This document shows, one piece after another, positions 44,785 to 64,000 of a stretch of DNA of 64,000 nucleotides; position 1 is the stretch's first letter, and each line of letters begins with the position of its first letter. Where the stretch lies: contig JAZRIR010000008.1 of the NCBI GenBank assembly GCA_045645365.1, forward strand, positions 8,912-72,911. The letters run 5' to 3'. The translations under genes were made by a program, and so were the position numbers. Under the pieces are notes generated by a model. It saw only the letters and a program-made list of their open reading frames with translations. It was not told where the DNA came from and made no database searches. The stretch comes from Clostridia bacterium. Lineage in GTDB: Bacteria; Bacillota; Clostridia; UBA1381.

Positions 44785-44794
44785 TCAATATCCA

Positions 44795-45788: not shown

Positions 45789-45794
45789 TATATA

Positions 45795-45989
45795 TAAGCA
45801 AGTTATATGGGTATATGATTTGCTTGGTTTTATGGTATATAGTGCAACGGCACGGCTTGAATTATTATTTAAGTTGGTGGCGGTGGCGGTGGTTTTCTTT
45901 TGCAGGTGCTAAAGAGATTAAATAATGAATAGAGCAATAGCCAGTATTGGCTTTAAGTGTCGTTACAAATGGTAACGGCACTTTTTTTG
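45795..45989 (+). ncRNA. transcription unit of about 190 nt: either a terminated leader or small RNA, or a 32-aa peptide mini-gene (45814-45912)
   Basis: It lies between the promoter above and an intrinsic terminator (gtgtcgttac / gtaacggcac, 45957-45981, plus T7). It contains the ORF MICLVLWYISATARLELLFKLVAVAVVFFCRC. The next gene's RBS follows the terminator. Confidence 0.4.
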
Positions 45990-46021
45990 TGTAGAAATAT
46001 TTTTATAAGGGGGTAACGGAT

Positions 46022-46528
46022 ATGTTACATAGTAGTTATTTTAATAGTGTTTGGAAAAAGAACAAGGGTGTTAAGGACGTTAGGTTTAAATTTGCAACGG
46101 TGGCGGTATTTGTCAGAAGGGTACTTGATAAAATGGGGTTATTTAGTTGTGCTGATGTTGAGAAAGATATTACGTGTGCTATGAAACAAGACTTTGATGA
46201 GTTTGATATTACAGTTGATAAGAAAAATGCACAAGTAGTATTAGAGGCAGATATTTGGGGTATTGGTACACTTGATAACGAAAGAAGAAAAGCACAGGTG
46301 CTTAAACGTATAAATGAGTATAACCAACACCTGCAGTTCGGGTATTGTATGCTGATAGATAGCAGGGTTATATATCGTATTAGAGAGAGCATCTATCTGG
46401 GTGCTGATGATGCGGAAGATTTAGCAGTAGCAGAAAGGCTAATCAGACGCTTTGAAATGGATGTCAAGTATGTTGATGATAAAATCTTTGACAGAGCAGT
46501 TGACAATCTCAATACCTTGACTAAATGA
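46022..46528 (+). CDS. hypothetical protein (168 aa)
   Basis: ORF with a GGGGG RBS. I recognised no confident motif. Confidence 0.5.
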   Translation: MLHSSYFNSVWKKNKGVKDVRFKFATVAVFVRRVLDKMGLFSCADVEKDITCAMKQDFDEFDITVDKKNAQVVLEADIWGIGTLDNERRKAQVLKRINEYNQHLQFGYCMLIDSRVIYRIRESIYLGADDAEDLAVAERLIRRFEMDVKYVDDKIFDRAVDNLNTLTK

Positions 46529-46741
46529 GATAGAAAAAGTGTCATCAGCAGGCGTTGCAAAAATGGGTATCTGGTTTCAACCAGATACAAAAATTGTGTT
46601 TTGAGCCATTTGAAATATGGAATTCATCGGCACAGAATAGGTTGAGTATATAAAAGTGTTACGTTATAAAATTTCAAAATTTTAGATTTTTAGGTGTAGT
46701 CAAAAAATCAGACTTTACAGGACAGAAAGGCGGTTGATTAG

Positions 46742-47278
46742 ATGAAATTTGCATATATGCTTGAAAATACAAATCGTACATACAAGATTGATAATCAGCC
46801 GCTTATGGCTGAAATTGTCAGGAATGATATTCCAGAAGAAAAGATTTACATAGATGCAGTTGGAGACGGTAAAAGACCAGAGTTTAATTTGTTGCTGAAT
46901 GACATTCAGGGTGGAGACATCCTTTACATTCGTAGCATCGGAGATTTATCGGATACAACAGGCGCTATTTTATATATATTAAGTAGTTTGGGTGAAATGG
47001 GTATTGTTGTCAGGTCGGTATGTGAGCCACAGTATGAGTACGGCAATCTCGTTATTCTTGGGTATGGGGTTAAGGTTGTCAGGGAGCTTTCAGAGAAGAA
47101 AAGAAAGTTGGGTATCTTACAGGCGGCATCTGCTGGCAAGATGGGGAGAAAAATTGATGAAGATACCAGAGATATGGTTGTCAGGCTGAAAAATTCGGGG
47201 TTTACGGTGGAAGAAATCACAAATCTGTGTAATATAAGCCGTAGCACCTATTACAGATATGTAAAAAATGCAGATTAA
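46742..47278 (+). CDS. resolvase-like protein lacking the catalytic serine (probably inactive; HTH retained)
   Basis: 178 aa. FAYMLENTNR stands where resolvases have Y-x-R-V-S-[ST]-x-x-Q, and SIGDLSD replaces DRLxR. The RPEFNLLL…GGDIL framework and the C-terminal HTH (ISRSTYYRYV) are retained. Confidence 0.6.
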   Translation: MKFAYMLENTNRTYKIDNQPLMAEIVRNDIPEEKIYIDAVGDGKRPEFNLLLNDIQGGDILYIRSIGDLSDTTGAILYILSSLGEMGIVVRSVCEPQYEYGNLVILGYGVKVVRELSEKKRKLGILQAASAGKMGRKIDEDTRDMVVRLKNSGFTVEEITNLCNISRSTYYRYVKNAD

Positions 47279-47572
47279 TTCAACCTTATTTATCTTTTGT
47301 CGTTAAATAGTGGTATCAGAAAATTAAGATTAAAGAAATCTGCAAATATTTTATTTTGACATCAAGAAAATGTTGAAATTACGCCATTTTGAGATTTTAA
47401 AATTTTCATCGTAATTTTGTGTTGAGATGACAAGGTTTTTATAAATTTTAATAAAATTTATGGTTAAGAGAGTTAAAAAAGAGAGTTCATATATTTTAAG
47501 TTATGGGTACACCAATCCTATACAGGTAACTTACAGGCTTGGATGTATTCATTAAATGTGTTCATAAGGTAG

Positions 47573-48172
47573 GTGTTAGATATGGAATACGGATACGTTC
47601 GTGTGTCAAGTAAAAGTCAGGCAGAAAATAATTCTCTGGCAGAGCAAGAGCAGACTATATTAGAAAAGTATCCTTCGGCAGAGATATACAGAGAAGTTTA
47701 TACTGCTGCAAAGGACTTTAATAATAGACAGGTGTTTAATGACCTAATTGACAGGTTGACAGATGGGAATTGTTTGATAGTTTGCAAGATGGATAGATTT
47801 TGCCGTAATGTGCGCGAAGGACTTAATATTATAGATGCCCTTTTATCAAAGGGCGTTACGGTGCATATTCTTAATCTGGGTGTTATTGATAATTCGCCTA
47901 TTGGCAGATTGTTATATACTGTTCTGCTTGCGTTTGCAGAGTTTGAAAGAAATATGATTGTAGAACGCACCAAAGCAGGCAGAGAGTTGGCAAGACAAAA
48001 GGATGGTTACACAGAAGGCAGACCAAAGAAATATAGCAAGACACAATTAAGTCTGGCTATGCAGTTGTTGGAAAATCACTCATACAAACAAGTTTCATCG
48101 ATGACAGGTATCTCAAAGAGCACACTACAAAGAGAAAAGAAAAGGACAGTTGACGAAAATAATAGGACATAA
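47573..48172 (+). CDS. small serine recombinase (resolvase/invertase)
   Basis: Motifs [20 protein letters not shown] and KMDRFCRN, plus a C-terminal HTH (ISKSTLQR). The likely true start is the ATG at 47582. Confidence 0.88.
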
Positions 48173-48284
48173 ATTAAAAAATTTTAACTAAAATCTCAAA
48201 AAATTTACTGATGAGAACAAAACGGACTAAAATGCACACAGTTACCTTAATTTAAGTATCAATTCGTAAGGGAGGGTACTTAAA

Positions 48285-48503
48285 ATGGGTAGTGCATTAA
48301 GACAACCTGATAGCGCATATACATCTATTGGTGGTGTTATGCCTATGGGTAATAAAGTTAATGTTGTTCTTTCAGATAAAGAGAAAGAGAACTTAAATCA
48401 TAGTCTTAAATCTTCTGTATATAAAGAATTATATAAAAAGTCTCTTATTACAGATAGAGAGTTAAGATTATTGTTAGAAAAAGCGCCTAAATTTTTAAAT
48501 TAG
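48285..48503 (+). CDS. small hypothetical protein upstream of the LSR gene
   Basis: 72 aa with a GGGAGGG RBS. A GC-rich stem-loop follows (ggagtggt/accactcc, 48517-48549). Confidence 0.45.
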   Translation: MGSALRQPDSAYTSIGGVMPMGNKVNVVLSDKEKENLNHSLKSSVYKELYKKSLITDRELRLLLEKAPKFLN

Positions 48504-48587
48504 GGGCTGAGATATCGGAGTGGTTGCGTTATAATACAGTGACCACTCCACAATACAAAAAGAAAAATTAGTTAGGAGAAGAGATTT

Positions 48588-50270
48588 ATGATTGATTTGA
48601 AAAATTTAAGTATTAGTAATGTAGTAGAAGTTAGTCCTTTTAATGTATTAAATGATGCAAAAGTGTTGCGCGCAGCAGCCTATGCAAGAATCAGTACAGA
48701 TAAGGATGACCAAGCCAATTCCTTTGAAAGTCAAGTTAAGTATTTTACAGAATTTATAGAAAAACAAGATAATTGGCAGTTGGTTAAGATATATAGTGAT
48801 GAAGGTATTTCGGGAACGTCAACTAAAAATCGTGTGGGTTTTAACTCAATGATTGATGATGTAATGGCAGGTAAAATTGATTTTATTATAACAAAAGAAG
48901 TTTCACGTTTTGCAAGAAATACAGTTGATACATTGCAGGTAACAAGGGACCTAAAAGAAAAGGGTGTTGGGGTTTACTTTATGCTTGATAATATCAATAC
49001 TTTGGACAAAGATGGCGAACTGCGCTTGACGCTTATGGCATCTCTCGCACAAGAAGAAAGTAGAAAGACATCTGAACGTGTTAAGTGGGGGCAGAAAAGA
49101 CAGATGGAAAAAGGTGTTGTCTTTGGTCGTAGCCTGCTTGGGTATAAGGTGGTTGAAGGTAAGTTATATCTGGTTGAAGATGAAGCAGAAATTGTGAGAA
49201 AAATATTTCACAAATATCTTGTTGAAGGTAAAGGTACTCATATAATAGCAAGAGAACTTAAAGAAGAAGGCATCAAGCCTTATGACCCTGATGGGCGTGC
49301 GAAATATAAGAATGATTGGTCAAACACACAGATTTTGCGTGTTCTTCACAATGAGAAATATGTTGGAGATTTGGTGCAAAAAAAGACTTGGACACAAAAC
49401 TTTTTAGACCACAAGAAAAGGTATAACAGGGATAACGAAGAGATGGTTAGAATTGAAAACCATCATCCAGAGATAGCGATTATCTCAAGAGAAATGTGGG
49501 ATGCCACGCAGGCAGAGTTACAACGCCGTACTACAACAGCGGAACAGAAGTCCAAACATAGCAATCGCTATTGGGCATCTGGTAAGATTTTCTGTGGTGT
49601 ATGTGGTGAGCGCTTTGTTAACAAAATCAAGAAAACAAGTGCAGGAACATCAAGGGCTTGGAATTGTATGAACCATATCAAACCACACGCCTTTCGTGAA
49701 GTAGAATGTTCTATGTCGGAGTGGGCAAGTGATAGGAGTATGAAGAATATTGTCCTTTATATTCTTAATATGTTAGTTGAGAACAGAAATGAACTCAAAG
49801 CAGAGATTGTAAAAGAGATTTCACAGTTAAATCTTGAAGAAAAGGTAAAGACAACAGATGACATACAGGACAAGATTGATAGATTAGAGCAGAAAAAATT
49901 AAAGTTGCTTGATATTAGATTGGCAGAAGAAATCTCAAAGGAAGATTTTAAGAAAAAGAATACACAAATTGAAACAGAGATTTCAAATTTACAGGTACAA
50001 TTAGAAGAAATCAGAGAACTTGCTACAACAAAACAACGTCAGCAAGACAGAATGGATGGTATCATTAAAGAGATTGATAGAGTGTTGCAGTTAGATAGTG
50101 AAGATTTGGATGAACTGTTGGGTACAGTTACACAGAGTATCACAGTTTATGAAGGTCATACAGTTGTGGTAAGACTTAAGGATGTTCCATTTAATTTCAA
50201 GGTGGTTTATAAGTCAACAGGTAAGTTAGATACATATAGGACAGAGATTTTAAGTCTTGAAGTGGTATAA
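48588..50270 (+). CDS. large serine recombinase (integrase of element B)
   Basis: 560 aa with AAAYARISTDKDDQANSFESQ (catalytic Ser), KEVSRFARN, a recombinase domain, a zinc ribbon (CGVCG…CMNH) and a long C-terminal coiled coil. Confidence 0.93.
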   Translation: MIDLKNLSISNVVEVSPFNVLNDAKVLRAAAYARISTDKDDQANSFESQVKYFTEFIEKQDNWQLVKIYSDEGISGTSTKNRVGFNSMIDDVMAGKIDFIITKEVSRFARNTVDTLQVTRDLKEKGVGVYFMLDNINTLDKDGELRLTLMASLAQEESRKTSERVKWGQKRQMEKGVVFGRSLLGYKVVEGKLYLVEDEAEIVRKIFHKYLVEGKGTHIIARELKEEGIKPYDPDGRAKYKNDWSNTQILRVLHNEKYVGDLVQKKTWTQNFLDHKKRYNRDNEEMVRIENHHPEIAIISREMWDATQAELQRRTTTAEQKSKHSNRYWASGKIFCGVCGERFVNKIKKTSAGTSRAWNCMNHIKPHAFREVECSMSEWASDRSMKNIVLYILNMLVENRNELKAEIVKEISQLNLEEKVKTTDDIQDKIDRLEQKKLKLLDIRLAEEISKEDFKKKNTQIETEISNLQVQLEEIRELATTKQRQQDRMDGIIKEIDRVLQLDSEDLDELLGTVTQSITVYEGHTVVVRLKDVPFNFKVVYKSTGKLDTYRTEILSLEVV

Positions 50271-50345
50271 AGAAAATGGCAAAGCATACTGATTTCAGTA
50301 GGCTTTGCCTATTCTGGTATAAAGGGGCAAAATCATCGCGGATAG

Positions 50346-50507
50346 ACCAATATCGGTTAGCAATCCCTTTGAAATATCATCAGGCATCATATATCTTTGA
50401 GAAAGGTATCTTAATGATGCACCTAATTCGCCGTGAGGACCACCGTACCAAAATGTTTGAGTATAGAAAAAATGGTAACTATTTATTCTTAAAAAACTTA
50501 ATATTTG
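50346..50507 (-). pseudogene. cotJC: cotJC-type Mn-catalase gene, N-proximal fragment (no start codon present)
   Basis: Minus-strand translation: …YGGPHGELGASLRYLSQRYMMPDDISKGLLTDIG. This matches my recollection of CotJC …QYGGADGELAAALRYLNQRYTIPDKVIGLLTDIG. Similarity fades upstream of about 50450, and no Met or RBS precedes it. Confidence 0.85.
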
Positions 50508-50518
50508 CTAGTATCGAA

Positions 50519-50552
50519 AGGTAGTTGTTATGTGAAAACAACTACCTTTTTT
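50519..50552 (+). terminator. rho-independent terminator-like hairpin where the 5' end of the catalase gene would be expected
   Basis: aggtagttgtt / aacaactacct stem followed by T6. Confidence 0.6.
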
Positions 50553-50586
50553 CTATGCAAAAACTCAAACACAAGGAGGTACAAAA

Positions 50587-51453
50587 ATGAGATTACAATT
50601 TGAATATTTTTACGGAAACGAAGCGGAAGATTTTACATTCTACCGCATACCGAAGAAAATCATAACATCGCCACAATTTAAAGATGTATCATACGGAGCT
50701 AAAATGCTTTACGGACTTTTGTTTGACCGTGTTGGTCTTTCTATAATGAACAGTTGGTTTGATGAAGAAAATCGTGCATACATCATTTTCTCCATTCAGG
50801 AGATTATGGATTTAATATATTGCAGTAAGCCAACCGCCATTAAGCTTATGTCCGAGCTTGAAGATGCCGGACTTATTGAAAGGCAAAAACGTGGTCGTGG
50901 TCTTACAGATTATATCTATGTTAAAAAGGTTGTGGATAATGAAAAAGTGGTAAAGAAAATTGACCACAAGGAGTTAAAAGAATTTACTTCTGATGGTAAA
51001 GAAACTGAACCTCAAGAGGTTAAAGATTTTAACCCTAATAATACTAATATAAATAATAATTACTTTAATGATATCTACACCAACCCTCCACCCAAAAGTC
51101 GAGCAGATTACGAGGAAATTATCAAAGAAAATATTGAATACGATATTTTGAAGCTTGATTTTAAAGGTGAATGGTTGGACAACATCATAGAACTTATGCT
51201 TGATGTTGTTTGTTCTGACAGTAATACGGTAAGGGTTAACCAAACAAATATTCCGATAGAACAGGTTCGTAAAAGGTATCTGCAAATAGGTGATATGCAT
51301 ATAAGATATCTTGATGATTTCGTCAGGAAGAATGATTATGTGATACATAATTTCAGAAATTTCTATATTTCAGCGATATACAATGCTCCTTTAATGATAG
51401 ATGCGTTTTATGACAAGTGGGTTAAAGAAGATATAGAAAGAGGTGCAATATAA
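50587..51453 (+). CDS. replication initiator protein, RepA_N family
   Basis: The N-terminus FTFYRIPKKIITSPQFKDVSYGAKMLYGLLFDRVGLSIMNSWFDEENRAYIIFSIQEIMDLI…LEDAGLIERQKRG is the characteristic RepA_N winged-helix region. Confidence 0.85.
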   Translation: MRLQFEYFYGNEAEDFTFYRIPKKIITSPQFKDVSYGAKMLYGLLFDRVGLSIMNSWFDEENRAYIIFSIQEIMDLIYCSKPTAIKLMSELEDAGLIERQKRGRGLTDYIYVKKVVDNEKVVKKIDHKELKEFTSDGKETEPQEVKDFNPNNTNINNNYFNDIYTNPPPKSRADYEEIIKENIEYDILKLDFKGEWLDNIIELMLDVVCSDSNTVRVNQTNIPIEQVRKRYLQIGDMHIRYLDDFVRKNDYVIHNFRNFYISAIYNAPLMIDAFYDKWVKEDIERGAI

Positions 51454-52349
51454 TGAGTGTAAATAACATCGGCTTAAAAAGCTACGAAGATTTATTCAAG
51501 GATGACAAAGGTAGAAAAACAGAAGAAATTATCCCTATGGACATCAAAGAATTAAAACCTTATGCAGAGCAACCCTTTAAAGTGCTGCTCGATAGCAGTA
51601 TGGACGAGCTTTGCGATAGCATAGCACAAAGCGGTGTTTTATCACCGATTATTACAAGACCACATCCCGAAGGTGGTTATGAGATTTTGTCAGGTCATCG
51701 TCGTGTGAAAGCTTGCGAACTTTTAAAAATCGAAGAAGTCCCGGTAGTTGTTAAAGAACTTGATGATGATACTGCTGCAATTCTTCTTGTCGATAGTAAT
51801 CTTCAAAGAGAAAATATACTGCCAAGCGAAAAGGCATTTGCTTACAAATTGAAGCTCGAAGCAATGAAACATCAAGGCAAATCCACTTTGTCCCAAATTG
51901 GGACGAAGTTAAGAAGCGACGAGGAACTTGCCCTTCAAGTTGGTGAAAGTAGAAATCAAGTTCAACGCTACATTAGACTCACAAACCTCATTGATCCTCT
52001 TCTTGATTTAGTTGATAAAAACGAAATGGCAATGAGTGCAGGTGTCGAGCTTTCATATCTTGGTACAAAGCATCAGGCAGAAATCAATAAAGTCATTGAG
52101 AGTGAATCTCCGCCATCAATCGCACAAGCAGTAAAACTTCGTAAATGTGCTGAAGAAGGTAATCTCGATGATAAAATGATAGAGCGTATTCTATCGACAG
52201 AAAAAGAAGAAAAAGTAAAACTTGTAATTTACGAGGACAAGCTCCGCAGATACTTTCCAAAGAACTACACAAAAGAACAAATTGAAGATACGGTTATGAA
52301 ACTGATTCAGAAGTGGCACAAAAATCGAGAAAAAGAAAATGAACGCTGA
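51453..52349 (+). CDS. ParB/Spo0J-like N-terminal-domain protein
   Basis: 298 aa with the ParB box ILSGHRRVKA and an HTH region. Its ATG overlaps the repA stop. Confidence 0.85.
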   Translation: MSVNNIGLKSYEDLFKDDKGRKTEEIIPMDIKELKPYAEQPFKVLLDSSMDELCDSIAQSGVLSPIITRPHPEGGYEILSGHRRVKACELLKIEEVPVVVKELDDDTAAILLVDSNLQRENILPSEKAFAYKLKLEAMKHQGKSTLSQIGTKLRSDEELALQVGESRNQVQRYIRLTNLIDPLLDLVDKNEMAMSAGVELSYLGTKHQAEINKVIESESPPSIAQAVKLRKCAEEGNLDDKMIERILSTEKEEKVKLVIYEDKLRRYFPKNYTKEQIEDTVMKLIQKWHKNREKENER

Positions 52350-53911: not shown

Positions 53912-53965
53912 TTGACAAAATACTTCTGTGGGAGTATAATGTATATGTATAACTCTACAGAAGTA
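53912..53965 (+). promoter_or_regulatory. perfect-consensus sigma-A promoter with a flanking 9-bp inverted repeat (candidate operator)
   Basis: TTGACA (53912-53917), a 17-nt spacer, then TATAAT (53935-53940). The inverted repeat tacttctgt (53921-53929) / acagaagta (53957-53965) brackets the -10 and the likely +1. Confidence 0.65.
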
Positions 53966-53979
53966 CGAGGAGTGTAACT

Positions 53980-54657
53980 ATGAGTAAATTAACAATATAT
54001 CACGGCTCGCCCGAAATCATTGAAAAGCCACAATTTGGTAAGGGGAAAACCTATAACGATTACGGCAGAGGTTTTTACTGCACAGAACACATTGAACTGG
54101 CAAAAGAATGGGCTTGTACCGAAGATGTAGACGGCTTTGTAAATAAATATGAGATTGAGTTATCAAACCTTAAAGTATTAAATCTTTCATCAGATGAATA
54201 TACCATTTTGCATTGGCTTGCAATTTTGATGAAAAATAGAAAGGTTCGTCTTTCAACCCCAGTTATGAAACGTGGTCGTGAATGGCTTATTGAACATTTT
54301 ATGCCTGACACAGAAGGCTACGATGCAATTATTGGATACCGTGCTGACGATTCTTATTTCTCATTTGCGAGAGCCTTTGTTAATAACGAAATTTCGCTTA
54401 ATCAGTTATCTTATGCTATGCGACTCGGCAAACTTGGAGAACAGGTTGTTTTGAAGAGTAAAAAAGCATTTGAAGAGATTAAGTATGTTTCGTATGAAGT
54501 TTGCGACAACACAATCTACTATGCAAAACGTAAAGCAAGAGATGACGAAGCAAGAGAAGCATTTAATGCAGAACTTGAAAAAGAAGATTTAAACGGTTTA
54601 TTTATGAGAGATATTATTCGTGAGGAGGTAACACCTGATGATGCGCGCTTACGATGA
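53980..54657 (+). CDS. DUF3990-family protein
   Basis: 225 aa. The N-terminus LTIYHGSPEIIEKPQFGKGKTYNDYGRGFYCTE contains the conserved GFY motif that I recall for DUF3990. Confidence 0.7.
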   Translation: MSKLTIYHGSPEIIEKPQFGKGKTYNDYGRGFYCTEHIELAKEWACTEDVDGFVNKYEIELSNLKVLNLSSDEYTILHWLAILMKNRKVRLSTPVMKRGREWLIEHFMPDTEGYDAIIGYRADDSYFSFARAFVNNEISLNQLSYAMRLGKLGEQVVLKSKKAFEEIKYVSYEVCDNTIYYAKRKARDDEAREAFNAELEKEDLNGLFMRDIIREEVTPDDARLR

Positions 54658-55282
54658 ACAATATTTAGATGATGCAATGCGAAATCTTGGCGAGGCTGCA
54701 GATTATGCTGTGAACGCCTGCAAGATTAGTTTACAGAAATTCTTTGATTTGTTTGTTACAACGGGTTTCGCTACACAGTTTGGAAACGGTGTACCAAAAA
54801 TTATTTCGGGATTATCAGGAACAGAGCTTGTTCACGAAATTGTTGTAAAATCAGGTATTGAACATGACCTCCCGGAAGTGCAGACTGAATATGATTGTTC
54901 CCCTGAATATTGGTGCGGATGGATTGTAGCTTATTATCAATGGAGCACTGGCAGAACTTTTAAAGATATCTTTCAAAATGTATCGGCAAAAGAAATTGAA
55001 AAGCTTTATCCAACACTCCACGAAGCACACGAAGATAAATTTGTTGATGTCGTAAATTCTATAATTGAGAGAAAAACTACAACAACAAAATTGCAGGAAC
55101 TTCGTAAAAACATCGGCTATTCCCAAAGAGAACTTGCCGAGAAATCAGGAGTAAATTTGAGAACTTTGCAACAGTATGAACTGAAAGCAAAGGATATAAA
55201 TAAAGCAGCAACAACCACTCTTCTTGCACTTTCCAAAACGCTTGGATGCAAGATTGAAGATTTGTTGGAAAATATGCAATAG
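54638..55282 (+). CDS. XRE-family HTH protein with an uncharacterised N-terminal domain (usual partner of DUF3990)
   Basis: 214 aa with a C-terminal HTH, LRKNIGYSQRELAEKSGVNLRTLQQYELKAKDINKAATTTLLALSKTLGCKIEDLL. It overlaps the upstream gene by 20 nt. Confidence 0.75.
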   Translation: MMRAYDEQYLDDAMRNLGEAADYAVNACKISLQKFFDLFVTTGFATQFGNGVPKIISGLSGTELVHEIVVKSGIEHDLPEVQTEYDCSPEYWCGWIVAYYQWSTGRTFKDIFQNVSAKEIEKLYPTLHEAHEDKFVDVVNSIIERKTTTTKLQELRKNIGYSQRELAEKSGVNLRTLQQYELKAKDINKAATTTLLALSKTLGCKIEDLLENMQ

Positions 55283-55297
55283 AAAGGAGCGTAATCT

Positions 55298-57826
55298 ATG
55301 AAAGCAAAAGAAGCTAAAGCTCGCTTAAAAATAAATAAACTTCTCGAAGCTGCAGGTTGGCGCTTTTTTGATGACGAGAACGGAGCTGCAAATATTCAAG
55401 TTGAACCTAATGTAAAAATGACAAAAACTCAGGTTGATGCATTTGGTGATAATTTTGATACAGTCAAAAATGGATTTATAGATTTTCTGTTGCTTGACAA
55501 TAACGGAAAGCCTTTTGTTGTGCTTGAAGCAAAGTCAGAAGATAAAGACCCACTTGTTGGAAAAGAGCAAGCAAGAGAATATGCAAAATCTTTGTATGTT
55601 AAATATGTTATCTTGTCAAATGGTAATCAACATTATTTTTGGAACATTACAAAGGGCAATCCTCAAATTATAACGGCATTCCCTAGCTATGAGAGTTTAA
55701 GAGACAGTAAAGCTTTTAATGCTAATCCTTCAAGATTATACAACGAAGAAATTAAAAGCGATTACATAGCAGTTGTAAAGAACTCTAATTATGCAGAAGC
55801 ACCTGAATATAAAAATGAACAAACAAGACAGAAATTTATCTTTGATACTGGACTGCGTTTTTTAAGACCATATCAAGTTAATACATTAAAAGCATTACAA
55901 GCATCAGTTAAAGCAGGAAATCAGCGTTTCTTGTTTGAAATGGCAACAGGAACAGGAAAAACACTTACTTCCGCTGCTGTTATCAGGTTGTTTTTGAGGA
56001 GTGGAAATGCTAATAGAGTTTTGTTCCTTGTAGATAGAATTGAGCTTGAAAATCAAGCAAAGAAAAACTTCCAAAATTACCTTACACCCGATTATCAAAC
56101 TGTTATTTTCAAAGAGAATACAGATGATTGGCGTAAAGCTGAAATAGTCGTGTCAACAGTACAGACGCTTGTTGCGAATAATAAATACAAGAAGTTTTTC
56201 AAGCCTACTGACTTTTCATTGATTATTGCAGACGAAAGTCACCGTTCAATCAATGGTAACAGTAGAGCTGTATTTGAGTATTTCTTAGGATACAAATTAG
56301 GTCTTACAGCTACCCCAAAAGATTACATAAAGAATGTTGATGTTGAAAAACTGAAAACTACTGACCCAAGAGCATGGGAAAAGAGGCAACTCCTTGATAG
56401 TTATAAGACCTTTGGCTGTGAAAGCGGAGAACCAACATTCAGATACTCATTACTTGACGGAGTTCGTGATGGATATTTGATCAATCCTACAGTTGTTGAT
56501 GCAAGAACTGAGATTACAACCGAACTACTTGCAGAAGAAGGTTATGCCGTTGTAACAACTGGAGACGAGCAAGATGAAGAACAAGAAGAAACTTTCTTTG
56601 CAAGAGATTTTGAACGCAAGTTCTTTTCGGAAACTACTAACAAAGTATTTGTGAAAACGTTTATGGATAATGCTTTGAGAGACCCGCTATCGGGTGAGAT
56701 TGGCAAAGGCATTATTTTCTGTGTTAGTCGTAGACATGCATCTAAAATTACACAATTACTTAATGAATATGCTGATAAAATGTTCCCTGACAGATATTGT
56801 TCTGACTTTGCAATGCAAATAACTTCTGATGTTATGAACGCACAAACTTATACTACGAATTTTCAAAACAACAACTTAAGTGGAACAACTACATTTTTGG
56901 ATGGGTATAAATCTTCAAAAACAAGGATATGCGTCACTGTTGGCATGATGACAACGGGATATGACTGTGAAGATTTGCTTAACATCGGTTTATTTAGACC
57001 TATTTTTTCTCCTACTGATTTCATTCAGATAAAAGGTAGAGGAACAAGAAAAGCAACCTTTGTATATAAAGAAAAGGTAAATGGAGCCATTGAAGAGCAC
57101 AAGGAAGAAAAAACAACATTTAAGCTGTTTGATTTCTTTGGTAATTGTGAATACTTTGAAGAAAAATTTGATTACGATGAAATCATAAAATTGCCACGTG
57201 CTCAGTCATCAGGTGGAATCCCCGGTGATCCACCTCCGCAGACAGAAGACTATGAGAATTTTAACCCTGACCCATTAGCTTCCATGACCGAAACTAAAAT
57301 AGGTCTTGAAGGCATGAAGATCGACAGAATGTTCTTTGATAAATTCGAAGAAACGGTTAAAGATGATCCGGTTGCTAAAGAACAGTACGAACAAGGTAAT
57401 TATCAGGCTGTTATTACTTATATTGATGAAAATATAATGAACAAACCTAACGAATATTATACTTGGGATAAACTCCGAAGGGCAATCGGAAGCGACAGAC
57501 GAATTACTGCAAGAGAAATTATTGATAAGATATTTGGCGTGTTGCCGTTCTTCAAGAGCAAGAAGGAACTTGTCGAGGATGAATTTGAATCATTTATGCT
57601 CACAAGAACAGTCCCACAGGAAAAATATTGGGATATAAAACAATTCTTTGAAACTTACATAACCGATAAAGATGTAAGACGAGCTATTGAAGATGGTGAG
57701 TATCAGCTTTTAGGTACAGAAGTCAGCACATATACGATGTCTGATTTAAAAAGACTTGGCAAAGAGTCTATGCTCAGTATTGTTGATTATGTCAATGATA
57801 ATGTAAATGTTTCAAGGTTTATGTAG
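55298..57826 (+). CDS. hsdR: type I restriction enzyme R subunit (HsdR-like: PD-(D/E)xK nuclease plus SF2 motor)
   Basis: 842 aa. The N-terminus is KINKLLEAAGWRF…IDFLLLDNNGKPFVVLEAKSEDK (D…E-x-K nuclease). Helicase motifs are EMATGTGKT, IIADESHR, GLTATP and QIKGRGTR, followed by a helical C-terminal domain. Confidence 0.85.
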   Translation: MKAKEAKARLKINKLLEAAGWRFFDDENGAANIQVEPNVKMTKTQVDAFGDNFDTVKNGFIDFLLLDNNGKPFVVLEAKSEDKDPLVGKEQAREYAKSLYVKYVILSNGNQHYFWNITKGNPQIITAFPSYESLRDSKAFNANPSRLYNEEIKSDYIAVVKNSNYAEAPEYKNEQTRQKFIFDTGLRFLRPYQVNTLKALQASVKAGNQRFLFEMATGTGKTLTSAAVIRLFLRSGNANRVLFLVDRIELENQAKKNFQNYLTPDYQTVIFKENTDDWRKAEIVVSTVQTLVANNKYKKFFKPTDFSLIIADESHRSINGNSRAVFEYFLGYKLGLTATPKDYIKNVDVEKLKTTDPRAWEKRQLLDSYKTFGCESGEPTFRYSLLDGVRDGYLINPTVVDARTEITTELLAEEGYAVVTTGDEQDEEQEETFFARDFERKFFSETTNKVFVKTFMDNALRDPLSGEIGKGIIFCVSRRHASKITQLLNEYADKMFPDRYCSDFAMQITSDVMNAQTYTTNFQNNNLSGTTTFLDGYKSSKTRICVTVGMMTTGYDCEDLLNIGLFRPIFSPTDFIQIKGRGTRKATFVYKEKVNGAIEEHKEEKTTFKLFDFFGNCEYFEEKFDYDEIIKLPRAQSSGGIPGDPPPQTEDYENFNPDPLASMTETKIGLEGMKIDRMFFDKFEETVKDDPVAKEQYEQGNYQAVITYIDENIMNKPNEYYTWDKLRRAIGSDRRITAREIIDKIFGVLPFFKSKKELVEDEFESFMLTRTVPQEKYWDIKQFFETYITDKDVRRAIEDGEYQLLGTEVSTYTMSDLKRLGKESMLSIVDYVNDNVNVSRFM

Positions 57827-57836
57827 GAGGCTAATT

Positions 57837-60329
57837 ATGTTAAATTTTGATATTAAACGTAAAATAAATACTTTGCGTGACATATTGGTCGGTAAAGTAC
57901 CTGATCCTAAGGCTCAGGTAGAACAAATTACTATTGCAATGATTTATAAGTTTATGGATGATATGGATATAGAAGCAATGGAATTTGGTGGAGAACGTGT
58001 ATTCTTTAAGGAAGAATATGAGAAATACGCTTGGTCTAACCTTATGAGCTCTGAAAACAGCGGGCAACAAAGAGCTTTAGTTTATGCAGAAGGCATTGAT
58101 AAAATGTCTATGAACCCTCATATTCCGCAACTATTTAGAGACATTTTTAGAGGTGCATATATACCATATAGAGACCCTGAAACTCTCAATATGTTTTTAA
58201 AGGAAATCGGTGAATTTTCTTATGATAACAGTGAGGATTTGGGAAATGCTTTTGAATATTTGCTTATGATTATGGGAAGCCAAGGAGATGCAGGACAATT
58301 CAGAACTCCGAGACATATTATCGACATGATGGTTGAGATAGTAAATCCCAAAAAGAATGATACAGTTCTTGATCCGGCGTGTGGTACAGCTGGCTTTTTG
58401 ATAAGTGCATACAAGCATATATTAAAAACAAATGTAGATGAAAATGGTAAGTCTACATTGACTTCTGACGACAAAAAGCGTTTAACAGATAACTTTGCGG
58501 GATATGATATTTCTCCTGATATGGTAAGATTGGCACGTGTAAATATGTATTTACATCGTTTCACAAAACCTCAAATTAGTGAGTATGATACTTTGTCAAG
58601 CGATGAAAAATGGGATGAGAATTACGATGTAATTCTTGCAAATCCCCCATTTATGACACCAAAGGGTGGTATAATACCACACAACAGATACAGAGTAAAA
58701 GCTAAACGTGCAGAAGTGTTGTTTGTCGATTATATTGCAGAACATTTGAATCCAACAGGAAAAGCGGCTATCATTGTTCCTGAAGGTATTGTTTTTCAGT
58801 CAGCTACAGCATACAAAGAATTAAGAAAGTATCTTGTAGATGATGGTTTGCTATATGCAGTAATTTCTTTGCCTGCAGGTGTATTTAATCCTTACAGTGG
58901 TGTAAAAACAAGTATTTTATTAATTGATAAGCCATTAGCAAGAATGCGTGATGACATTCTCTTTGTGAAAATGAATCACGATGGTTTTGATCTCGGTGCA
59001 CAACGCAGAGAAATAAAGCAGAATGATATTCCTGATATTATTAACGCTGTAAAGGCATATCAAAACGGTGAAGAAATCAACAATACTTCACTTGTTACAT
59101 TAGCAGATAAGAAAGATATTGCTAAACGAGATTATATCTTGATTGGAGAAAAATATAAGAAAATTAGTATTAGCGATAATATTTATCCAATGATTAAAAT
59201 AGGAGATGTATGCAATATCGTTACAGGATATGCATTTAAAAGTTCAGAGCTGAAAGATGAACCGGAACAAGGAGATTTTCCTGTTATTAAAATTGGGAAT
59301 TTAATGAATAAATCTGTACTTGATTTAAGTAGTGTGCAATTTTATCCATTTAGTGAAGTGTTAAGGAAATACATTGTTAATAAAAATGATATTTTATTAG
59401 CAATGACAGGAGCTACTGTTGGTAAGGTTTCTATTGCTCAGGAGAACAATCTGTTATTAAATCAACGTGTAGCAAAGATCACTCCTGATGAAAAGCATAT
59501 ACTTAACAAATTCCTTAAAATAATAATGTTTTCAGATGTTTTCTACAATTACTGTCAAAACAATGCAGGTGGAGGAGCACAAGGCAATATCTCACCGAAT
59601 GGAATTGCTAATTTCACCTTTCCATTACCTCCTCTTTCTATTCAACAAGAAATAGTTGAAGAAATAGAAAGCTATCAAAAGATTATTGATGGAGCCAAGC
59701 AAATTGTTACTAACTACAAACCGATAATAAATGTTGATTCTGACTGGGAATTAACAACAATAGGAAATATATGCATACTGAACCCAGTTAAATCAGAAGT
59801 TAAGGATCTTGCTGACGATACACTAGTATCTTTTGTTCCAATGTCAGATATTAGCGAAACAGATATGTTGTTTACACCACAAAATATTACAACATTATCT
59901 GAGGCTTACAATGGATATACGTATTTTAGAGATGAAGATGTATTACTTGCAAAAGTTACTCCTTGCTTTGAAAATGGCAAATCTGGTATAGCAAGGGACT
60001 TGTGCAACGGAATTGGCTTTGGATCAAGTGAATTTTATGTATTGAGACCAGATGAAACAAAAGTTTTGCCTGAAATTATTTATTATACTATTAATAGTGA
60101 TCGTTTTATCAATAACGGAAAAGAACATATGACTGGTACAGGTGGGTTACGAAGGCTTACAAAAGATTATGTTTTGAATGCACAAATTGCCGTTCCCTCG
60201 ATAGAAATACAAAAACGCATAGTTGATAGTATAAATGCTGAAATGAATATTGTTGAACAAAACAAACGTCTAATAGAAATCTTTGAACAGAAAATTTCAA
60301 ATAAAATCTCCGAGGTTTGGGGGGATTGA
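57837..60329 (+). CDS. fused type I methyltransferase and specificity subunit (HsdM-HsdS in one polypeptide)
   Basis: About 830 aa. It has SAM motif I VLDPACGTAGFL and catalytic NPPF. Two target-recognition domains follow, each ending in the HsdS conserved helix (PLPPLSIQQEIVEEIES and AVPSIEIQKRIVDSINAE). RBS AGGAGG precedes the ATG at 57837. Confidence 0.85.
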   Translation: MLNFDIKRKINTLRDILVGKVPDPKAQVEQITIAMIYKFMDDMDIEAMEFGGERVFFKEEYEKYAWSNLMSSENSGQQRALVYAEGIDKMSMNPHIPQLFRDIFRGAYIPYRDPETLNMFLKEIGEFSYDNSEDLGNAFEYLLMIMGSQGDAGQFRTPRHIIDMMVEIVNPKKNDTVLDPACGTAGFLISAYKHILKTNVDENGKSTLTSDDKKRLTDNFAGYDISPDMVRLARVNMYLHRFTKPQISEYDTLSSDEKWDENYDVILANPPFMTPKGGIIPHNRYRVKAKRAEVLFVDYIAEHLNPTGKAAIIVPEGIVFQSATAYKELRKYLVDDGLLYAVISLPAGVFNPYSGVKTSILLIDKPLARMRDDILFVKMNHDGFDLGAQRREIKQNDIPDIINAVKAYQNGEEINNTSLVTLADKKDIAKRDYILIGEKYKKISISDNIYPMIKIGDVCNIVTGYAFKSSELKDEPEQGDFPVIKIGNLMNKSVLDLSSVQFYPFSEVLRKYIVNKNDILLAMTGATVGKVSIAQENNLLLNQRVAKITPDEKHILNKFLKIIMFSDVFYNYCQNNAGGGAQGNISPNGIANFTFPLPPLSIQQEIVEEIESYQKIIDGAKQIVTNYKPIINVDSDWELTTIGNICILNPVKSEVKDLADDTLVSFVPMSDISETDMLFTPQNITTLSEAYNGYTYFRDEDVLLAKVTPCFENGKSGIARDLCNGIGFGSSEFYVLRPDETKVLPEIIYYTINSDRFINNGKEHMTGTGGLRRLTKDYVLNAQIAVPSIEIQKRIVDSINAEMNIVEQNKRLIEIFEQKISNKISEVWGD

Positions 60330-60330
60330 T

Positions 60331-61515
60331 ATGAACAACATTGAAGTTGGCAAAGAATATGTTTCAAAGGTGCTTAAAAAAGTAGGGAATCTACCATTGA
60401 GTTCATTAAAGGACTATAATATAAAAGATGAACTTCCTGAACAAATTCATGAAATTAACAAGTTTCTACCTCAGGCGTTTCAAGATGAAAGTGAAAAAAA
60501 GTATATTGAAGCCTTGTATCTTGCACTTGAAACAAGCTACAAAAATGGACTTTATCAATTTGCCTATGTACAATATCATATGTTATTTATGACATCTATC
60601 TATTTTGTGTTGCTTAAAATTTATAAGCTGCACAAAGAAGAAATGGACAAGGCAATTTACTACTTGCTTAAAGAGCGAAAAAACGAATTCTATAACGAAG
60701 AAAACACAAAAAGCGGAGAACTTTATTTTGGTAGCTTTGCAATTATTGGTGAAAGTGATGTTTTTATGCTGTTGCGAGTGATTGGTCTTAGTGATTCGAT
60801 TTTAGGGGAGCTTAAAAAGTTAGTTAAATCACGAAATGGCTATGCACACGCAAATGGTCGATTGCTTTTAACTTCAAATGAATTATTTTTGAAAGAAATT
60901 CAAAAGTACAATGATAAAACTATGCAGGTGTTTGACTTGTTAAAAGATGACATCACGAAATTGTATATAGATACAATAACAGATGTTGAATTTTATGACC
61001 CTGAAGTAAGAGCTTATTATGATCCTGATGAGCAAATAATACAAGAATTTATCAATTCGTACTCAATAACTCAAACAGAGCTTAATTGGTTGCGGAAAAT
61101 TAAAACTAATGATTTTAAAACTTATGATGGTTACGAGCATATCAAAGATTTACATATTGCACTTTGTCATTATTATGACTGTTTAGCGGATACTGATGAG
61201 AATTATTCTCCGATTAAAGATGCTTATTTGCTTTACAAATACAGGGATAATGCAGAAGAGTTTATCGAAAAAGAACTTGGTATAAACGGCTATGAATGTG
61301 TTAAACATGGCGGAGAGTTTCCGTTGTATGAATGCCCTGAATGCGGTGAAGAACAATTAGCTCATGATGCTGAAAATGGAAAATTTCATTGTTTTCATTG
61401 CAATGAGGACTATACTTCCGAAACACTAACCTTTTGCACTCGTTGTGGTTCGTTAACAAGCAAAAACGAAATGGATATATGCAAAAATTGTATTGACGAT
61501 ATGATGGAAGATTGA
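60331..61515 (+). CDS. HEPN-motif protein (RNxxAH) with a C-terminal zinc ribbon, translationally coupled to the RM genes
   Basis: 394 aa. The ATG lies 1 nt after the hsdMS stop (tgaTatg). Motifs: LVKSRNGYAHANG (Rx4H); C-terminal CPECGEEQ…CFHC…CTRCG…CKNC. Confidence 0.6.
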   Translation: MNNIEVGKEYVSKVLKKVGNLPLSSLKDYNIKDELPEQIHEINKFLPQAFQDESEKKYIEALYLALETSYKNGLYQFAYVQYHMLFMTSIYFVLLKIYKLHKEEMDKAIYYLLKERKNEFYNEENTKSGELYFGSFAIIGESDVFMLLRVIGLSDSILGELKKLVKSRNGYAHANGRLLLTSNELFLKEIQKYNDKTMQVFDLLKDDITKLYIDTITDVEFYDPEVRAYYDPDEQIIQEFINSYSITQTELNWLRKIKTNDFKTYDGYEHIKDLHIALCHYYDCLADTDENYSPIKDAYLLYKYRDNAEEFIEKELGINGYECVKHGGEFPLYECPECGEEQLAHDAENGKFHCFHCNEDYTSETLTFCTRCGSLTSKNEMDICKNCIDDMMED

Positions 61516-61650
61516 TAATTTTTAAAGTCGAATGTCGGAAAGCGATTTATAGTGTTAAGTGGGCGGACAATGTACCATTCTCGCCTATGCGATTGCGCGT
61601 ATTAATTCGTTAACGCCGATAATATAAAAGAAGAAACTTGATTTAACCTT

Positions 61651-63195
61651 ATGAGTAATTGGAGTTTTCTTATGAAAGATAATAAGTATATTAACCCTTT
61701 TTCTGAAAATAGCGAAAATCTTGCTAAAGAATTTGATAGCGCAGCAATGAGCAAAGATACGCAGAAAATAGAAAGAATAATAAAAAAAGCTATGTTTCTT
61801 GTGAAAACTGAAGACAACGCTTCTAAGGCTGCTATCTTCTATTCTTTAGGAACTGCATTTGGAGATTTACAAAGTATAGCAAAATCAGTTGATGAGGAAC
61901 TTATCAAGAAACAATTATATTACTTTAGAAAAAGTTTAAAGATTATCGAAAGTGATGAACTAAATAAGACCGAATATACACCATATGTTTTAACACAGAA
62001 AATACTCTTATATACAAATTATGCTAATGTTTTGGATGTATGTGGGAGAAAAATTGCAGCAATCGTATATCTAAAAAAGGCTATTGAAATTCATAACGAT
62101 TTTGGAATGGCTCTTGGGAATTTAGGAAGAATCTATCAACGTTATGGCGAACTTGATTTTGATGAAGGGCGTCAGGAGGAATTCCATTATTTTGCATGCC
62201 AGAAGCTATACGAGGCATGTGAAAGTAATGATCCAAATACACATATTAAGGCAAAAAAATATTTTAAAAAGATGTTAGAGAAGTATCCCCAAGACTTTAT
62301 AGACGATGCGCTTGAAGGGAAAATGATATTTAATAAATATTCTTATCCCGATCCTGATGAATTATCATACAGAAGTTGCTGTTTACAAAAAGGGTTGTTT
62401 TTAAATCCTGCAAACGATTTGCCTGTTTTGGAACTTGCTTTTGCAGGAGATACAATTCAATTGCCTAAAATGATAGTAAAAGTTCATGATAAACCTATAT
62501 TCCATGGAATGTTTTCCCAATTAAAACAAGAATACATTTATGCTCGAAATTTATATTATGAGGCTTTAAATTCGAATGGCGAAGTTCATTTTGCAGACAA
62601 GGAAACATACATAGTGTCTTACACTGATTATACTCAATACTGTATAAGAGTTGAAAAACTTAAAACATCATTTAAAACACTATATGGAATGTTTGATAAA
62701 ATCGCATTTTTCATTGAGCATTATTTCTGTATTGGTATTAAAGAGCGAGATGTTAATTTTAAAACTATATGGAGAAAATCTGCTGGATATGGTAAAAATG
62801 AGTATTTATACGCAAATCCTCTTAATCCAAAAAACAATATCTCGCTATATGCACTATATTGGATTAGCAAAGATTTTTTTGAAAAGTTTGAAGATTCACC
62901 AAATCCGGAACTTGCGAGAATCAGTGATATCAGAAATGCATTAGAGCATAAGTATGTGAAAGTTACAAGTAGTTTTTTTAATGCTGCTGAAGAATGGGAA
63001 GACGGTTTGGCTCTATATGTAAGTGAGAATGAATTATACGATGTTACTTTAGAATTGCTAAAAATTTTGAGAGAAGCAATTCTATGTTTGGCTTTCTGTG
63101 TAAATATTGAGGAAATCCCGAAAAGAGAAGATGCCAAAGGTAAGTTAATATTGCCAATGTCACTAATGGATTTTGAAGATGAATGGAAAGTTTAA
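61651..63195 (+). CDS. TPR-like N-terminal domain plus C-terminal HEPN (LA2681-like) protein
   Basis: 514 aa. The N-terminal half is helical-repeat (TPR-like). The C-terminal half has ISDIRNALEHKY (Rx4H). A better SD (GGAG) precedes the alternative ATG at 61672. Confidence 0.6.
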   Translation: MSNWSFLMKDNKYINPFSENSENLAKEFDSAAMSKDTQKIERIIKKAMFLVKTEDNASKAAIFYSLGTAFGDLQSIAKSVDEELIKKQLYYFRKSLKIIESDELNKTEYTPYVLTQKILLYTNYANVLDVCGRKIAAIVYLKKAIEIHNDFGMALGNLGRIYQRYGELDFDEGRQEEFHYFACQKLYEACESNDPNTHIKAKKYFKKMLEKYPQDFIDDALEGKMIFNKYSYPDPDELSYRSCCLQKGLFLNPANDLPVLELAFAGDTIQLPKMIVKVHDKPIFHGMFSQLKQEYIYARNLYYEALNSNGEVHFADKETYIVSYTDYTQYCIRVEKLKTSFKTLYGMFDKIAFFIEHYFCIGIKERDVNFKTIWRKSAGYGKNEYLYANPLNPKNNISLYALYWISKDFFEKFEDSPNPELARISDIRNALEHKYVKVTSSFFNAAEEWEDGLALYVSENELYDVTLELLKILREAILCLAFCVNIEEIPKREDAKGKLILPMSLMDFEDEWKV

Positions 63196-63208
63196 TAGGA
63201 TGTGTTTT

Positions 63209-63703
63209 ATGGGAAAAATATTACATGAAAATTCAGAGAAAATCTTAAAATGCAACGTAGAGATCCTTTTTGCCAATTTAAGTGATGCAATCAAAAAGTA
63301 TGTTGACGATGGCAAGTGGATGGGCGAACTAAAATACATAAATGCTTACTTGTCAGCAACTATACATGCAATTGTTTGTTATATTGATAAGCTTATAGAA
63401 GTTGGGCGTATGCAAGAAACTGAAACAGTGCAAGCATTAAAATATGTAAACAATCTTCAAAAACATAATCCAAACTTTGTAAGCATAACAAAACGAACAG
63501 GTGGGTTCGTTTTTCCTATATCATTTCCATTTTCGTGTGAAATGTATGATGTTGTATGGTCTGAATGCATTGGTCTAAAAACAAAAAAGCCACAGCAAAA
63601 AGAGTCATATGAAAAATTATTTCAAGATAAAAAAATTCTTGATATATTAGATGTAATTGTTAAAAAACTACTAAATGATAGTATAGATAAAAACTTGGAC
63701 TAA
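63209..63703 (+). CDS. hypothetical protein (about 164 aa), co-oriented with and abutting the TPR-HEPN gene
   Basis: ORF with an AGGA 9 nt upstream of the ATG at 63209. I recognised no motif. Confidence 0.5.
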   Translation: MGKILHENSEKILKCNVEILFANLSDAIKKYVDDGKWMGELKYINAYLSATIHAIVCYIDKLIEVGRMQETETVQALKYVNNLQKHNPNFVSITKRTGGFVFPISFPFSCEMYDVVWSECIGLKTKKPQQKESYEKLFQDKKILDILDVIVKKLLNDSIDKNLD

Positions 63704-63778
63704 ATTTGTACTGTTTTTGAATTGCAATTGATTGTTAAGGTATGTTACAATGTAAAATGTAAAGAGTATATACAAACG

Positions 63779-63811
63779 GCGGCTGACGAATGTCAGTCGC
63801 TTTTGTGTTTT
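63779..63811 (+). terminator. rho-independent terminator closing the HEPN gene block
   Basis: gcggctgac / gtcagtcgc stem with one G-U pair and loop gaat, followed by ttttgtgtttt. A second hairpin plus T9 follows at about 63813-63848. Confidence 0.75.
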
Positions 63812-64000
63812 AAGGATCGGTTTATGCCGGTCTTTTTTTTATGCCATAAATCTAGTGAATGTCACATTTTCTCGGACGATTTTTCAAAGAAATTTCAAAA
63901 AAAGGGGTTGAAAAATGGCCCTTTTTTCTGTTGGTATATGAGGGGTGTTTTTTTGAACTGTTGGAGAAATAGCAATTTGTGTCGAACGATTTTTTAAAGT

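Follow-up and report, generated by a model that had tools for sequence, protein, structure and literature searches.

A type I restriction-modification cassette with a putative HEPN gene, and two separately assorting neighbours, in a gut Clostridia mobile element

Do three genes that follow a restriction-modification (RM) operon belong with it to one defence system, or are they neighbours of separate origin? The question is raised by positions 60331-63703 of the stretch analysed here (“the window”: 64,000 nt of contig JAZRIR010000008.1 from a Clostridia bacterium), where a gene encoding a fused HsdM-HsdS protein is followed by three open reading frames (ORFs). ORF1 carries the motif SRNGYAHANG and four CxxC pairs, ORF2 carries the motif DIRNALEHKY, and ORF3 is a small gene abutting ORF2; the ORF list confirms the coordinates and motifs given for them in a first-pass annotation of the window. 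That annotation had also read the two larger proteins as HEPN-family members, treated the trio and its coupling to the fused M-S gene as one system, and proposed ORF3 as a possible immunity or regulatory partner. Our analysis divides the answer: ORF1 appears to travel with the RM genes, and ORF2 and ORF3 each appear to follow a path of their own.

The comparison rests on 121 loci, comprising 80 genome loci of the ORF2 family, 10 metagenome loci of the ORF3 family and the contexts of individual relatives, i.e., of the closest ORF2 relative and of seven and four members of the ORF1 and ORF3 families, respectively. Co-occurrence was determined by six-frame profile search in the first 115 loci, and six further loci (L116-L121) were added for P0121, a copy of ORF2 with 95% identity.

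The restriction-modification genes and ORF1

The RM genes of the window, like the DUF3990 and HTH_3 genes ahead of them and ORF1-ORF3 behind them, lie on the forward strand. They encode an hsdR-like subunit of 842 aa (55298-57826), with an HSDR_N_2 nuclease and a ResIII helicase domain, and a fused HsdM-HsdS (57837-60329), with an N6_Mtase domain at residues 143-452 and two Methylase_S target-recognition domains. The hsdMS reading frame opens at 57807, and its homologues begin at MLNFD (57837), which is the likely start. The set has the make-up of a type I system, i.e., an HsdR nuclease-helicase, an HsdM N6-adenine methylase and an HsdS with two target-recognition domains, and the 840-aa fused protein and hsdR match the PADLOC families REase_I, MTase_I and Specificity_I; since the NCBIfam equivalog cutoffs are not reached, it represents a divergent subtype. 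ORF1 (60331-61515; 394 aa) combines a predicted HEPN domain with a middle domain that is likewise conserved and, at the C terminus, a double zinc ribbon, and starts 1 nt past the hsdMS stop (60329), its Shine-Dalgarno sequence (GGGGGG) lying within the 3' end of hsdMS.

This arrangement recurs well beyond the window. In seven of seven independent Clostridia contexts (the window, L092, L095, L098, L102, L104 and L106), an hsdR of about 845 aa and a fused hsdM-S have a relative of ORF1 behind them, with 46-76% identity at the level of ORF1. The hsdMS/ORF1 junctions measure +1, +1, -4, +2, -4 and +33 nt, and L104 has an AbiTii gene in between. Every ORF1 start is preceded by a Shine-Dalgarno-like purine run, which is located inside the hsdMS 3' end at the five tight junctions. 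The gene after ORF1 is always a different one: a 249-aa unknown protein, SIR2_2, a 437-aa DUF3800-like protein, DUF4886, a superfamily 1 helicase or SLFN/AlbA_2.

Plasmids searched by tblastn for this RM subtype extend the picture to Proteobacteria. Plasmid pPZ02 of Paracoccus zhejiangensis bears a helicase, a fused MS (M part 56% identical) and a 246-aa protein that overlaps MS by 4 nt; this protein is 26% identical to ORF1, retains the motif ERNDTAHANG, is devoid of zinc ribbons and matches PF18735 with an E value of 0.003. More than 50 IncF plasmids of E. coli and Salmonella, such as E. coli NZ_CP116482.1 (L115, 4406-11954), bear this R and MS subtype (53% identical) between finO and repA, and their ORF1 slot is taken by a “TrlF family AAA-like ATPase” of 951 aa with SMC_N/AAA_21 signatures. 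The remaining plasmid matches are ordinary hsdM genes of about 31% identity. The presence of an ATPase in that slot is consistent with an exchangeable position for accessory effectors. The seven contexts, together with the Paracoccus plasmid, uphold the earlier proposal that ORF1 is coupled to a fused M-S system. Judged by synteny and gene junctions, hsdR, the fused hsdM-S and ORF1 are a conserved unit, of which ORF1 is the constant, translationally coupled third gene.

What kind of protein does this third gene encode? The motif of ORF1 places an Rx4H pattern at R168 and H173, and across 88 homologues R168, N169, H173, A174, N175 and G176 are invariant, while the cysteines of the CxxC pairs (C335/338, C354/357, C369/372 and C384/387) are invariant or almost so. 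ORF1 matches the C-terminal half of the Pfam profile HEPN_MAE_28990 (PF18737) at 27.4 bits (cutoff 26.8; E 4.8e-6) and also has weak zinc-ribbon matches in Pfam. An AlphaFold2 (AF2) model built on the 88-homologue alignment (predicted local distance difference test, pLDDT, 89.1; predicted template-modelling score, pTM, 0.78) is all-helical plus the zinc ribbons, with helices at residues 75-100, 102-120, 155-172 and 183-202 and a short insert at 121-151. In this model, helix 155-172 finishes with RNGYA, and H173 is the first residue of the loop before helix 183-202, which matches, for a predicted structure, the position of the Rx4-6H motif in the HEPN fold (PMC3710099); the motif thus does not fall outside the HEPN core, an outcome that had been named as one that would speak against the assignment. 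A Foldseek search of ORF1 against PDB gave no significant match: the best one is a HEPN structure (2hsb) with a probability of 0.90 but an E value of 0.36, and the other HEPN matches (HepT/SO_3166 and Csm6) are weak (E > 0.7). Relatives of solved structure sought by sequence amounted to zinc-ribbon and TPR matches, no ATPase domain was found in ORF1 by Pfam, NCBIfam and PADLOC scans, and a look-up of the ORF1 product of the window found no record. Based on the marginal Pfam score, the conservation of the motif and the predicted structure, we regard ORF1 as a putative, divergent HEPN protein.

The middle domain of ORF1 (about residues 217-325) is conserved too, and includes a second histidine motif, IKDLHxALxHYY (residues 271-282; 61141-61176 in the window), which is kept in the Paracoccus relative. 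No significant homology was detected among the three proteins with hhalign, the best E value between ORF1 and ORF2 being 0.13; the alignment with this E value places IKDLHxALxHYY on the LA2681 catalytic motif, and the region may be a degenerate second HEPN-like unit. Towards the C terminus, the second zinc ribbon is absent from some relatives (P0117 and P0118), and P0120 is devoid of the entire C-terminal region.

These properties help to weigh an alternative view of ORF1, namely that it is a non-catalytic or structural RM subunit (a zinc-ribbon DNA/RNA-binding or assembly factor) and not an abortive RNase. Its very tight linkage and translational coupling to hsdMS would suit such a role, as would the zinc ribbon, the existence of HEPN domains that are non-catalytic binders (PMC3710099) and the E. 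coli variant, which holds an ATPase and no nuclease in the slot. However, a structural subunit accords poorly with an R-N-x-x-A-H motif that is invariant in 88 homologues and kept in a Paracoccus relative without zinc ribbons, with the losses in P0117, P0118 and P0120, and with the faster evolution of ORF1 (mean identity between contexts 55%) compared to R and M (78%). We consider this alternative unlikely.

ORF2 and ORF3

The second gene, ORF2 (61672-63195), encodes a protein of 507 aa. An alternative start at 61651 would yield 514 aa, but the start at 61672 is preferred because GGAG is found 7 nt upstream and the nearest homologues have 507 aa. Its residues 276-487 match Pfam HEPN_LA2681 (PF18733) over profile positions 2-204 of 204 (E 5e-58), and the ORF2-family profile matches consensus TPR proteins over about residues 84-203 (E 1e-25), which establishes the suggested architecture, an LA2681-type HEPN domain fused to TPR. 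Within DIRNALEHKY, another Rx4H motif, R421 and H426 do not vary among 27 homologues with identities as low as 45%. Both larger proteins can be placed in the HEPN family, as the first-pass annotation had it: ORF1, as a putative member, through PF18737 and its invariant motif, ORF2 through PF18733. Given the Pfam scores and the invariant R and H in 88 and 27 homologues, respectively, the two motifs are not chance occurrences.

Close Clostridia relatives of ORF2 (57-95% identity) are repeatedly the terminal gene of RM-headed islands. Five of these islands (L003, L004, L006, L007 and L014) share the order hsdM, hsdS, Ymh (HEPN), a 480-aa gene and ORF2; another one (L082) has Mrr and a ResIII/Eco57I enzyme ahead of ORF2, and yet another (L116) has AbiEii, hsdRMS and an AAA ATPase pair, then ORF2. 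Two HEPN genes stacked behind RM genes are thus a recurrent feature (e.g., L003), but their partners differ and they do not form a fixed pair. Over the ORF2 family as a whole, the neighbours are mixed, RM enzymes accounting for about 10 of 74 immediate upstream genes, and the downstream genes are patternless. ORF2 would most simply be a self-contained sensor-effector, as its combination of TPR and HEPN suggests.

Two of these islands have features of their own. In L003 (1783-8768) and its relatives, the protein encoded between the Ymh HEPN and the TPR-LA2681 genes has 480-496 aa and a weak nucleoside 2-deoxyribosyltransferase-like match. In L116 (392-8983), hsdR is fused at its N terminus to DUF4145, a HEPN family, and is followed by hsdM and hsdS; an AAA_15/AAA_21 ATPase and a 243-aa gene precede the 95%-identical ORF2, after which come DUF6809, Flg_new, Xis and a tyrosine integrase.

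Could ORF1 and/or ORF2 be addiction toxins instead, stabilising the RM cassette or the mobile element by post-segregational killing? HEPN proteins are frequent toxins of toxin-antitoxin modules (PMC3710099), and the mobile element that carries the genes also encodes recombinases, RepA_N and ParB. Yet no MNT or other antitoxin-like gene was found adjacent to them, the neighbours are consistently defence genes (SIR2, AbiTii, AbiEii, SLFN and Mrr), and scans of viral contigs for ORF1 and ORF3 found none, all of which makes an addiction role improbable in our eyes.

ORF3 (63209-63703) starts 13 nt after ORF2 and encodes a helical protein of 164 aa with the motif ANNxLKH, a reading backed by homologue lengths of 163-166 aa. 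It has no match in Pfam, NCBIfam, PADLOC or PHROGs. It nevertheless has 26 close relatives, and an exhaustive profile search recovered 127 clusters at 50% identity, nearly all of them stand-alone proteins of 150-170 aa; one profile match, P0296 (1449 aa), was discarded as a low-complexity repeat artefact. The 329-aa member P0270 has a helix-turn-helix (HTH) region C-terminal to its ORF3-like domain, a fusion that may point to a regulatory function of the family. The AF2 model of ORF3 (pLDDT 80) combines three long and two short helices with a beta-hairpin whose loop is of low confidence. Its sole significant fold match is a 177-aa viral protein in BFVD (A0A6G5YNV6; probability 1.00, template-modelling score 0.59, 20% identity).

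Within 83 diverse members of the superfamily, for which a Pfam scan matched no family, K85 and H86 are the only invariant residues, while N82, P103, W117 and Y134 are almost so; ANNxLKH (residues 78-86) ends the predicted third long helix (72-86), which is a HEPN-like position. ORF3 might then be a degenerate HEPN-like domain, with N-N-x-L-K-H standing for R-N-x-x-x-H, that modulates HEPN RNases. This would agree with the conservation and location of the motif, with the occurrence of HepT and HEPN-MNT structures among the weak fold matches, and with the best local alignment of hhalign, which sets ANNxLKH on the LA2681 motif IRNALEH (E 0.009). That alignment has a probability of just 4.5% and is a lead only, however; moreover, no PDB fold match is significant, Pfam is silent on all 83 members, and the family has no conserved linkage to HEPN genes. 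Alternatively, ORF3 might be an anti-defence factor of conjugative elements, as its relatives of about 50% identity occupy a fixed slot between coupling-protein and primase/relaxase genes of such elements. Whether as HEPN modulator or as anti-defence factor, we give these roles a slim chance.

The partnership of ORF3 with ORF2 proposed by the first-pass annotation fails on co-occurrence. ORF3 is absent from the 80 LA2681 genome loci and from the six loci of P0121, and overall it is missing from 86 of 88 other ORF2-family loci, while an 85%-identical copy of it (L108) lies behind a DUF3800 gene, itself located after a classical hsdRMS. A nucleotidyltransferase domain, which would have been expected of a HEPN-MNT antitoxin, was not found in ORF3 by Pfam. 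With an antitoxin or immunity partner ruled out by the lack of co-occurrence, ORF3 is, as far as its contexts tell, a mobile-element gene that happens to adjoin ORF2.

A mosaic cargo slot

The same independence is seen when the three families are considered together. Among the 115 loci, the ORF2 family occurs alone in 80, the ORF1 family alone in 17 and the ORF3 family alone in 15; ORF2 and ORF3 co-occur in two (L082 and L083), ORF1 and ORF2 in none, and one locus (L115) has no family at all. As for the 95%-identical ORF2 (P0121), it neighbours neither ORF1 nor ORF3 in any of its six places.

At the DNA level, the window is a mosaic. A sister element (L082) is 83-88% identical to it over positions 53939-55276 and 61805-64000, whereas positions 55251-61404, i.e., hsdR, hsdMS and ORF1, match another element (L092) with 83-91% identity; in addition, positions 63195-63809 (ORF3 and the first terminator) match L108 at 85%. 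The homology to L092 stops at 61404 and that to L082 starts at 61805, on either side of the intergenic stretch (61516-61671) that separates the RM-ORF1 cassette from the ORF2 module. A regulatory RNA in this gap (135-155 nt in the first-pass annotation) was considered and ruled out, as there is no Rfam match and the folding is not unusual (z -0.77). The hsdR proteins of the window and L092 are 96% identical, and the sole stretch of the cassette without DNA similarity to L092 (59172-59622) falls in the specificity part of MS and looks like a target-recognition-domain swap.

These two elements differ in what lies between their flanks. L082 has Mrr, two unknown genes and a 1377-aa ResIII/Eco57I enzyme between a DUF3990-HTH gene pair and ORF2-ORF3, past which come a serine recombinase and then chromosomal genes. 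The order in L092 is DUF3990-HTH, Mrr, an unknown gene, hsdR, hsdMS and ORF1, followed by the 249-aa unknown gene, DUF6809, Flg_new and a serine recombinase, with no ORF2 and no ORF3.

Since ORF1 and ORF2 are found together in no other locus among the 121 and the window is a DNA mosaic, the trio as one system, as the first-pass annotation proposed it, is ruled out by synteny and mosaic analysis. That view, in which RM, ORF1, ORF2 and ORF3 would make up one multi-layer system of cooperating HEPN RNases with ORF3 as immunity or regulatory partner, may appeal to the common strand of all genes between a strong promoter-like site and terminators, to the 13 nt between ORF2 and ORF3 and to their adjacency in L082 and L083, but it is highly implausible in view of the co-occurrence counts, the solitary close copies of ORF2 and ORF3, mosaic breakpoints that fall exactly between genes and sequencing runs that hold at most 26% of the words of the region.

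The features around the cargo genes agree with those of the sister elements. To the left, a DUF3990 protein (53980-54657) and an HTH_3 protein whose N-terminal domain is of unknown type (54638-55282; ORF list and domain scan) form a pair that is the conserved left flank of a variable cargo slot; it is 88% identical in DNA to L082 1-1338 and also heads the slot in L082 and L092. In PADLOC, the two proteins correspond to PDC-M42A/B, a candidate defence pair (E 6e-46 and 9e-8). Ahead of the whole same-strand run lies a promoter-like site, TTGACA-17-TATAAT (53912-53940, forward strand), which matches the sigma-70 consensus at 12 of 12 positions and is a possible operon start; it is a consensus match, not evidence of function. 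To the right, the gene run is closed by two terminator-like hairpins (63778-63835, forward strand), conserved in L082.

Further upstream, the backbone at 32825-52349 includes an amidoligase_2 and GATase pair, two large serine recombinases (41023-42543 and 48588-50270), RepA_N/DUF6017 and ParB, and these genes suggest nested or tandem integrative elements. Taken together, the mosaic structure and the recombinase, RepA_N and ParB genes indicate that the region is the recombinase-proximal defence-cargo slot of an integrative element, in which modules are exchanged at gene boundaries. The host element, read from its gene content, is an integrative one (conjugative or mobilisable) of a gut Clostridia bacterium, with three independently assorting modules. 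No single public sequencing run contains more than 26% of the 31-mers of the region, and the matching runs are all gut metagenomes, from ruminants or other hosts, which fits a rare recombinant, and a megablast of the island against plasmids found no match.

A candidate mechanism and comparison with known systems

Going beyond what was observed above on the genes, their domains and conserved motifs, their synteny and the mosaic structure, we propose that the region holds a PrrC-like, RM-coupled RNase in a first module (hsdR, hsdMS and ORF1), a stand-alone ORF2 in a second and ORF3 in a third, brought together in a mosaic cargo slot. We find this reading reasonably probable, while RNase activity, latency, trigger and abortive outcome are all inferred by analogy with PrrC/EcoprrI. 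In such a scheme, the RM complex would attack unmodified incoming DNA, and ORF1 would be held inactive by the HsdR/HsdMS complex or would sense its state. Were restriction inhibited or overwhelmed, ORF1 would cut RNA (tRNA, rRNA or mRNA), so that translation would stop and the infection be aborted. The zinc ribbons of ORF1 may bind nucleic acid or RM proteins, and are dispensable in some lineages. For its part, ORF2 would use its TPR half as the sensing or autoinhibitory part and its HEPN half as the RNase effector.

Several points weigh against this proposal. The Pfam score of ORF1 exceeds the cutoff by just 0.6 bits and its fold matches have E values of at least 0.36. The distances between ORF1 proteins track those of R and M weakly (r 0.49 and 0.44, from non-independent pairs), ORF1 evolves faster, and the description of ORF1 as a constant partner is drawn from loci found via ORF1 itself and from two plasmid lineages. 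Because ORF1 has no counterpart to the ABC ATPase of PrrC, the latency mechanism of the latter is not transferable to it. Finally, no public RNA run holds the region, and ORF1, ORF2 and ORF3 match no PADLOC-DB 2.0 model (no family at E <= 1).

A bolder possibility, about which we are rather doubtful, is that the cassette would be an obligate three-component unit across phyla, with the ATPase-less zinc-ribbon HEPN RNase as a physical subunit or a guard of the restriction complex, unleashed when phage anti-restriction proteins disable that complex, and with an interchangeable third slot that the TrlF ATPase occupies on enterobacterial IncF plasmids. If true, this would amount to a general, modular “RM-guard” architecture, directly testable in E. 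coli.

Under the PrrC-like reading proposed above, the cassette has a bearing on a long-standing expectation. Since 2013, HEPN genes linked to RM systems have been expected to encode second-line effectors of the PrrC kind, and almost none beyond PrrC have been tested. The present comparison separates a conserved unit, found in Clostridia and on an alphaproteobacterial plasmid, from the chance neighbourhood of the trio, and its ATPase-bearing sister version is common on E. coli IncF plasmids. It thereby offers a compact and tractable case for asking how a restriction complex could keep an RNase latent without the ABC ATPase of PrrC, as well as an example of a gut mobile-element cargo slot that shuffles defence modules at gene boundaries. 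Our literature search found no description of a cassette made of R, fused M-S and an ATPase-less zinc-ribbon HEPN protein, or of its ATPase-bearing IncF counterpart, and PF18737, PF18733 and the phrase TPR-HEPN turned up in no paper of the collection searched.

Among known systems, the closest parallel is PrrC/EcoprrI (type Ic), in which a HEPN RNase gene is likewise attached to a type I RM operon. The RM proteins are believed to hold PrrC in a latent state, from which it would come into play as a further line of defence once restriction has been neutralised (PMC3710099). Linkage to RM systems extends to at least 16 HEPN clades, for which a role as a second layer is an established prediction (PMC3710099). 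ORF1 shares with PrrC the Rx4H motif and the RM linkage, and, as expected of a PrrC or RloC gene, it lies in a type I RM locus (in the seven Clostridia contexts and on the Paracoccus plasmid). In contrast, PrrC has an N-terminal regulatory ABC ATPase, where ORF1 has none and features a helical middle domain and a double zinc ribbon instead; for lack of that ATPase, ORF1 is not a member of the PrrC family. The RM partner differs as well, being a fused M-S with a short R (842 aa), and ORF1 comes after the S part rather than between hsd genes.

The MAE_28990 and RiboL-PSP-type families (PF18737 and PF18735) provide the best profile matches for the HEPN core of ORF1, albeit marginal and partial ones. 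MAE_28990 has been described in operons with DNA methylase genes, in a context of ParB nuclease and methylase (PMC3710099), whereas the context of ORF1 is hsdR and fused hsdMS, and its zinc-ribbon tail and middle domain are foreign to those families.

At the level of the region, the slot resembles the defence islands in cargo slots of integrative and conjugative elements, where variable cassettes are found between conserved flanks beside a recombinase and contents are swapped between sisters; the flanks are here DUF3990-HTH on the left, and terminators followed by a serine or tyrosine recombinase on the right. Those islands represent a general pattern and not a defined system, and it is this pattern of exchange that makes the three genes neighbours here. 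As for ORF2, its architecture is identical to that of the LA2681-like HEPN proteins with TPR fusion listed by Anantharaman et al. (2013, Table 1), to which our study adds a regular position as last gene of RM-headed Clostridia islands. The architecture of ORF2 was thus already described, and what appears to be new is the cassette with an ATPase-less, zinc-ribbon putative HEPN protein.

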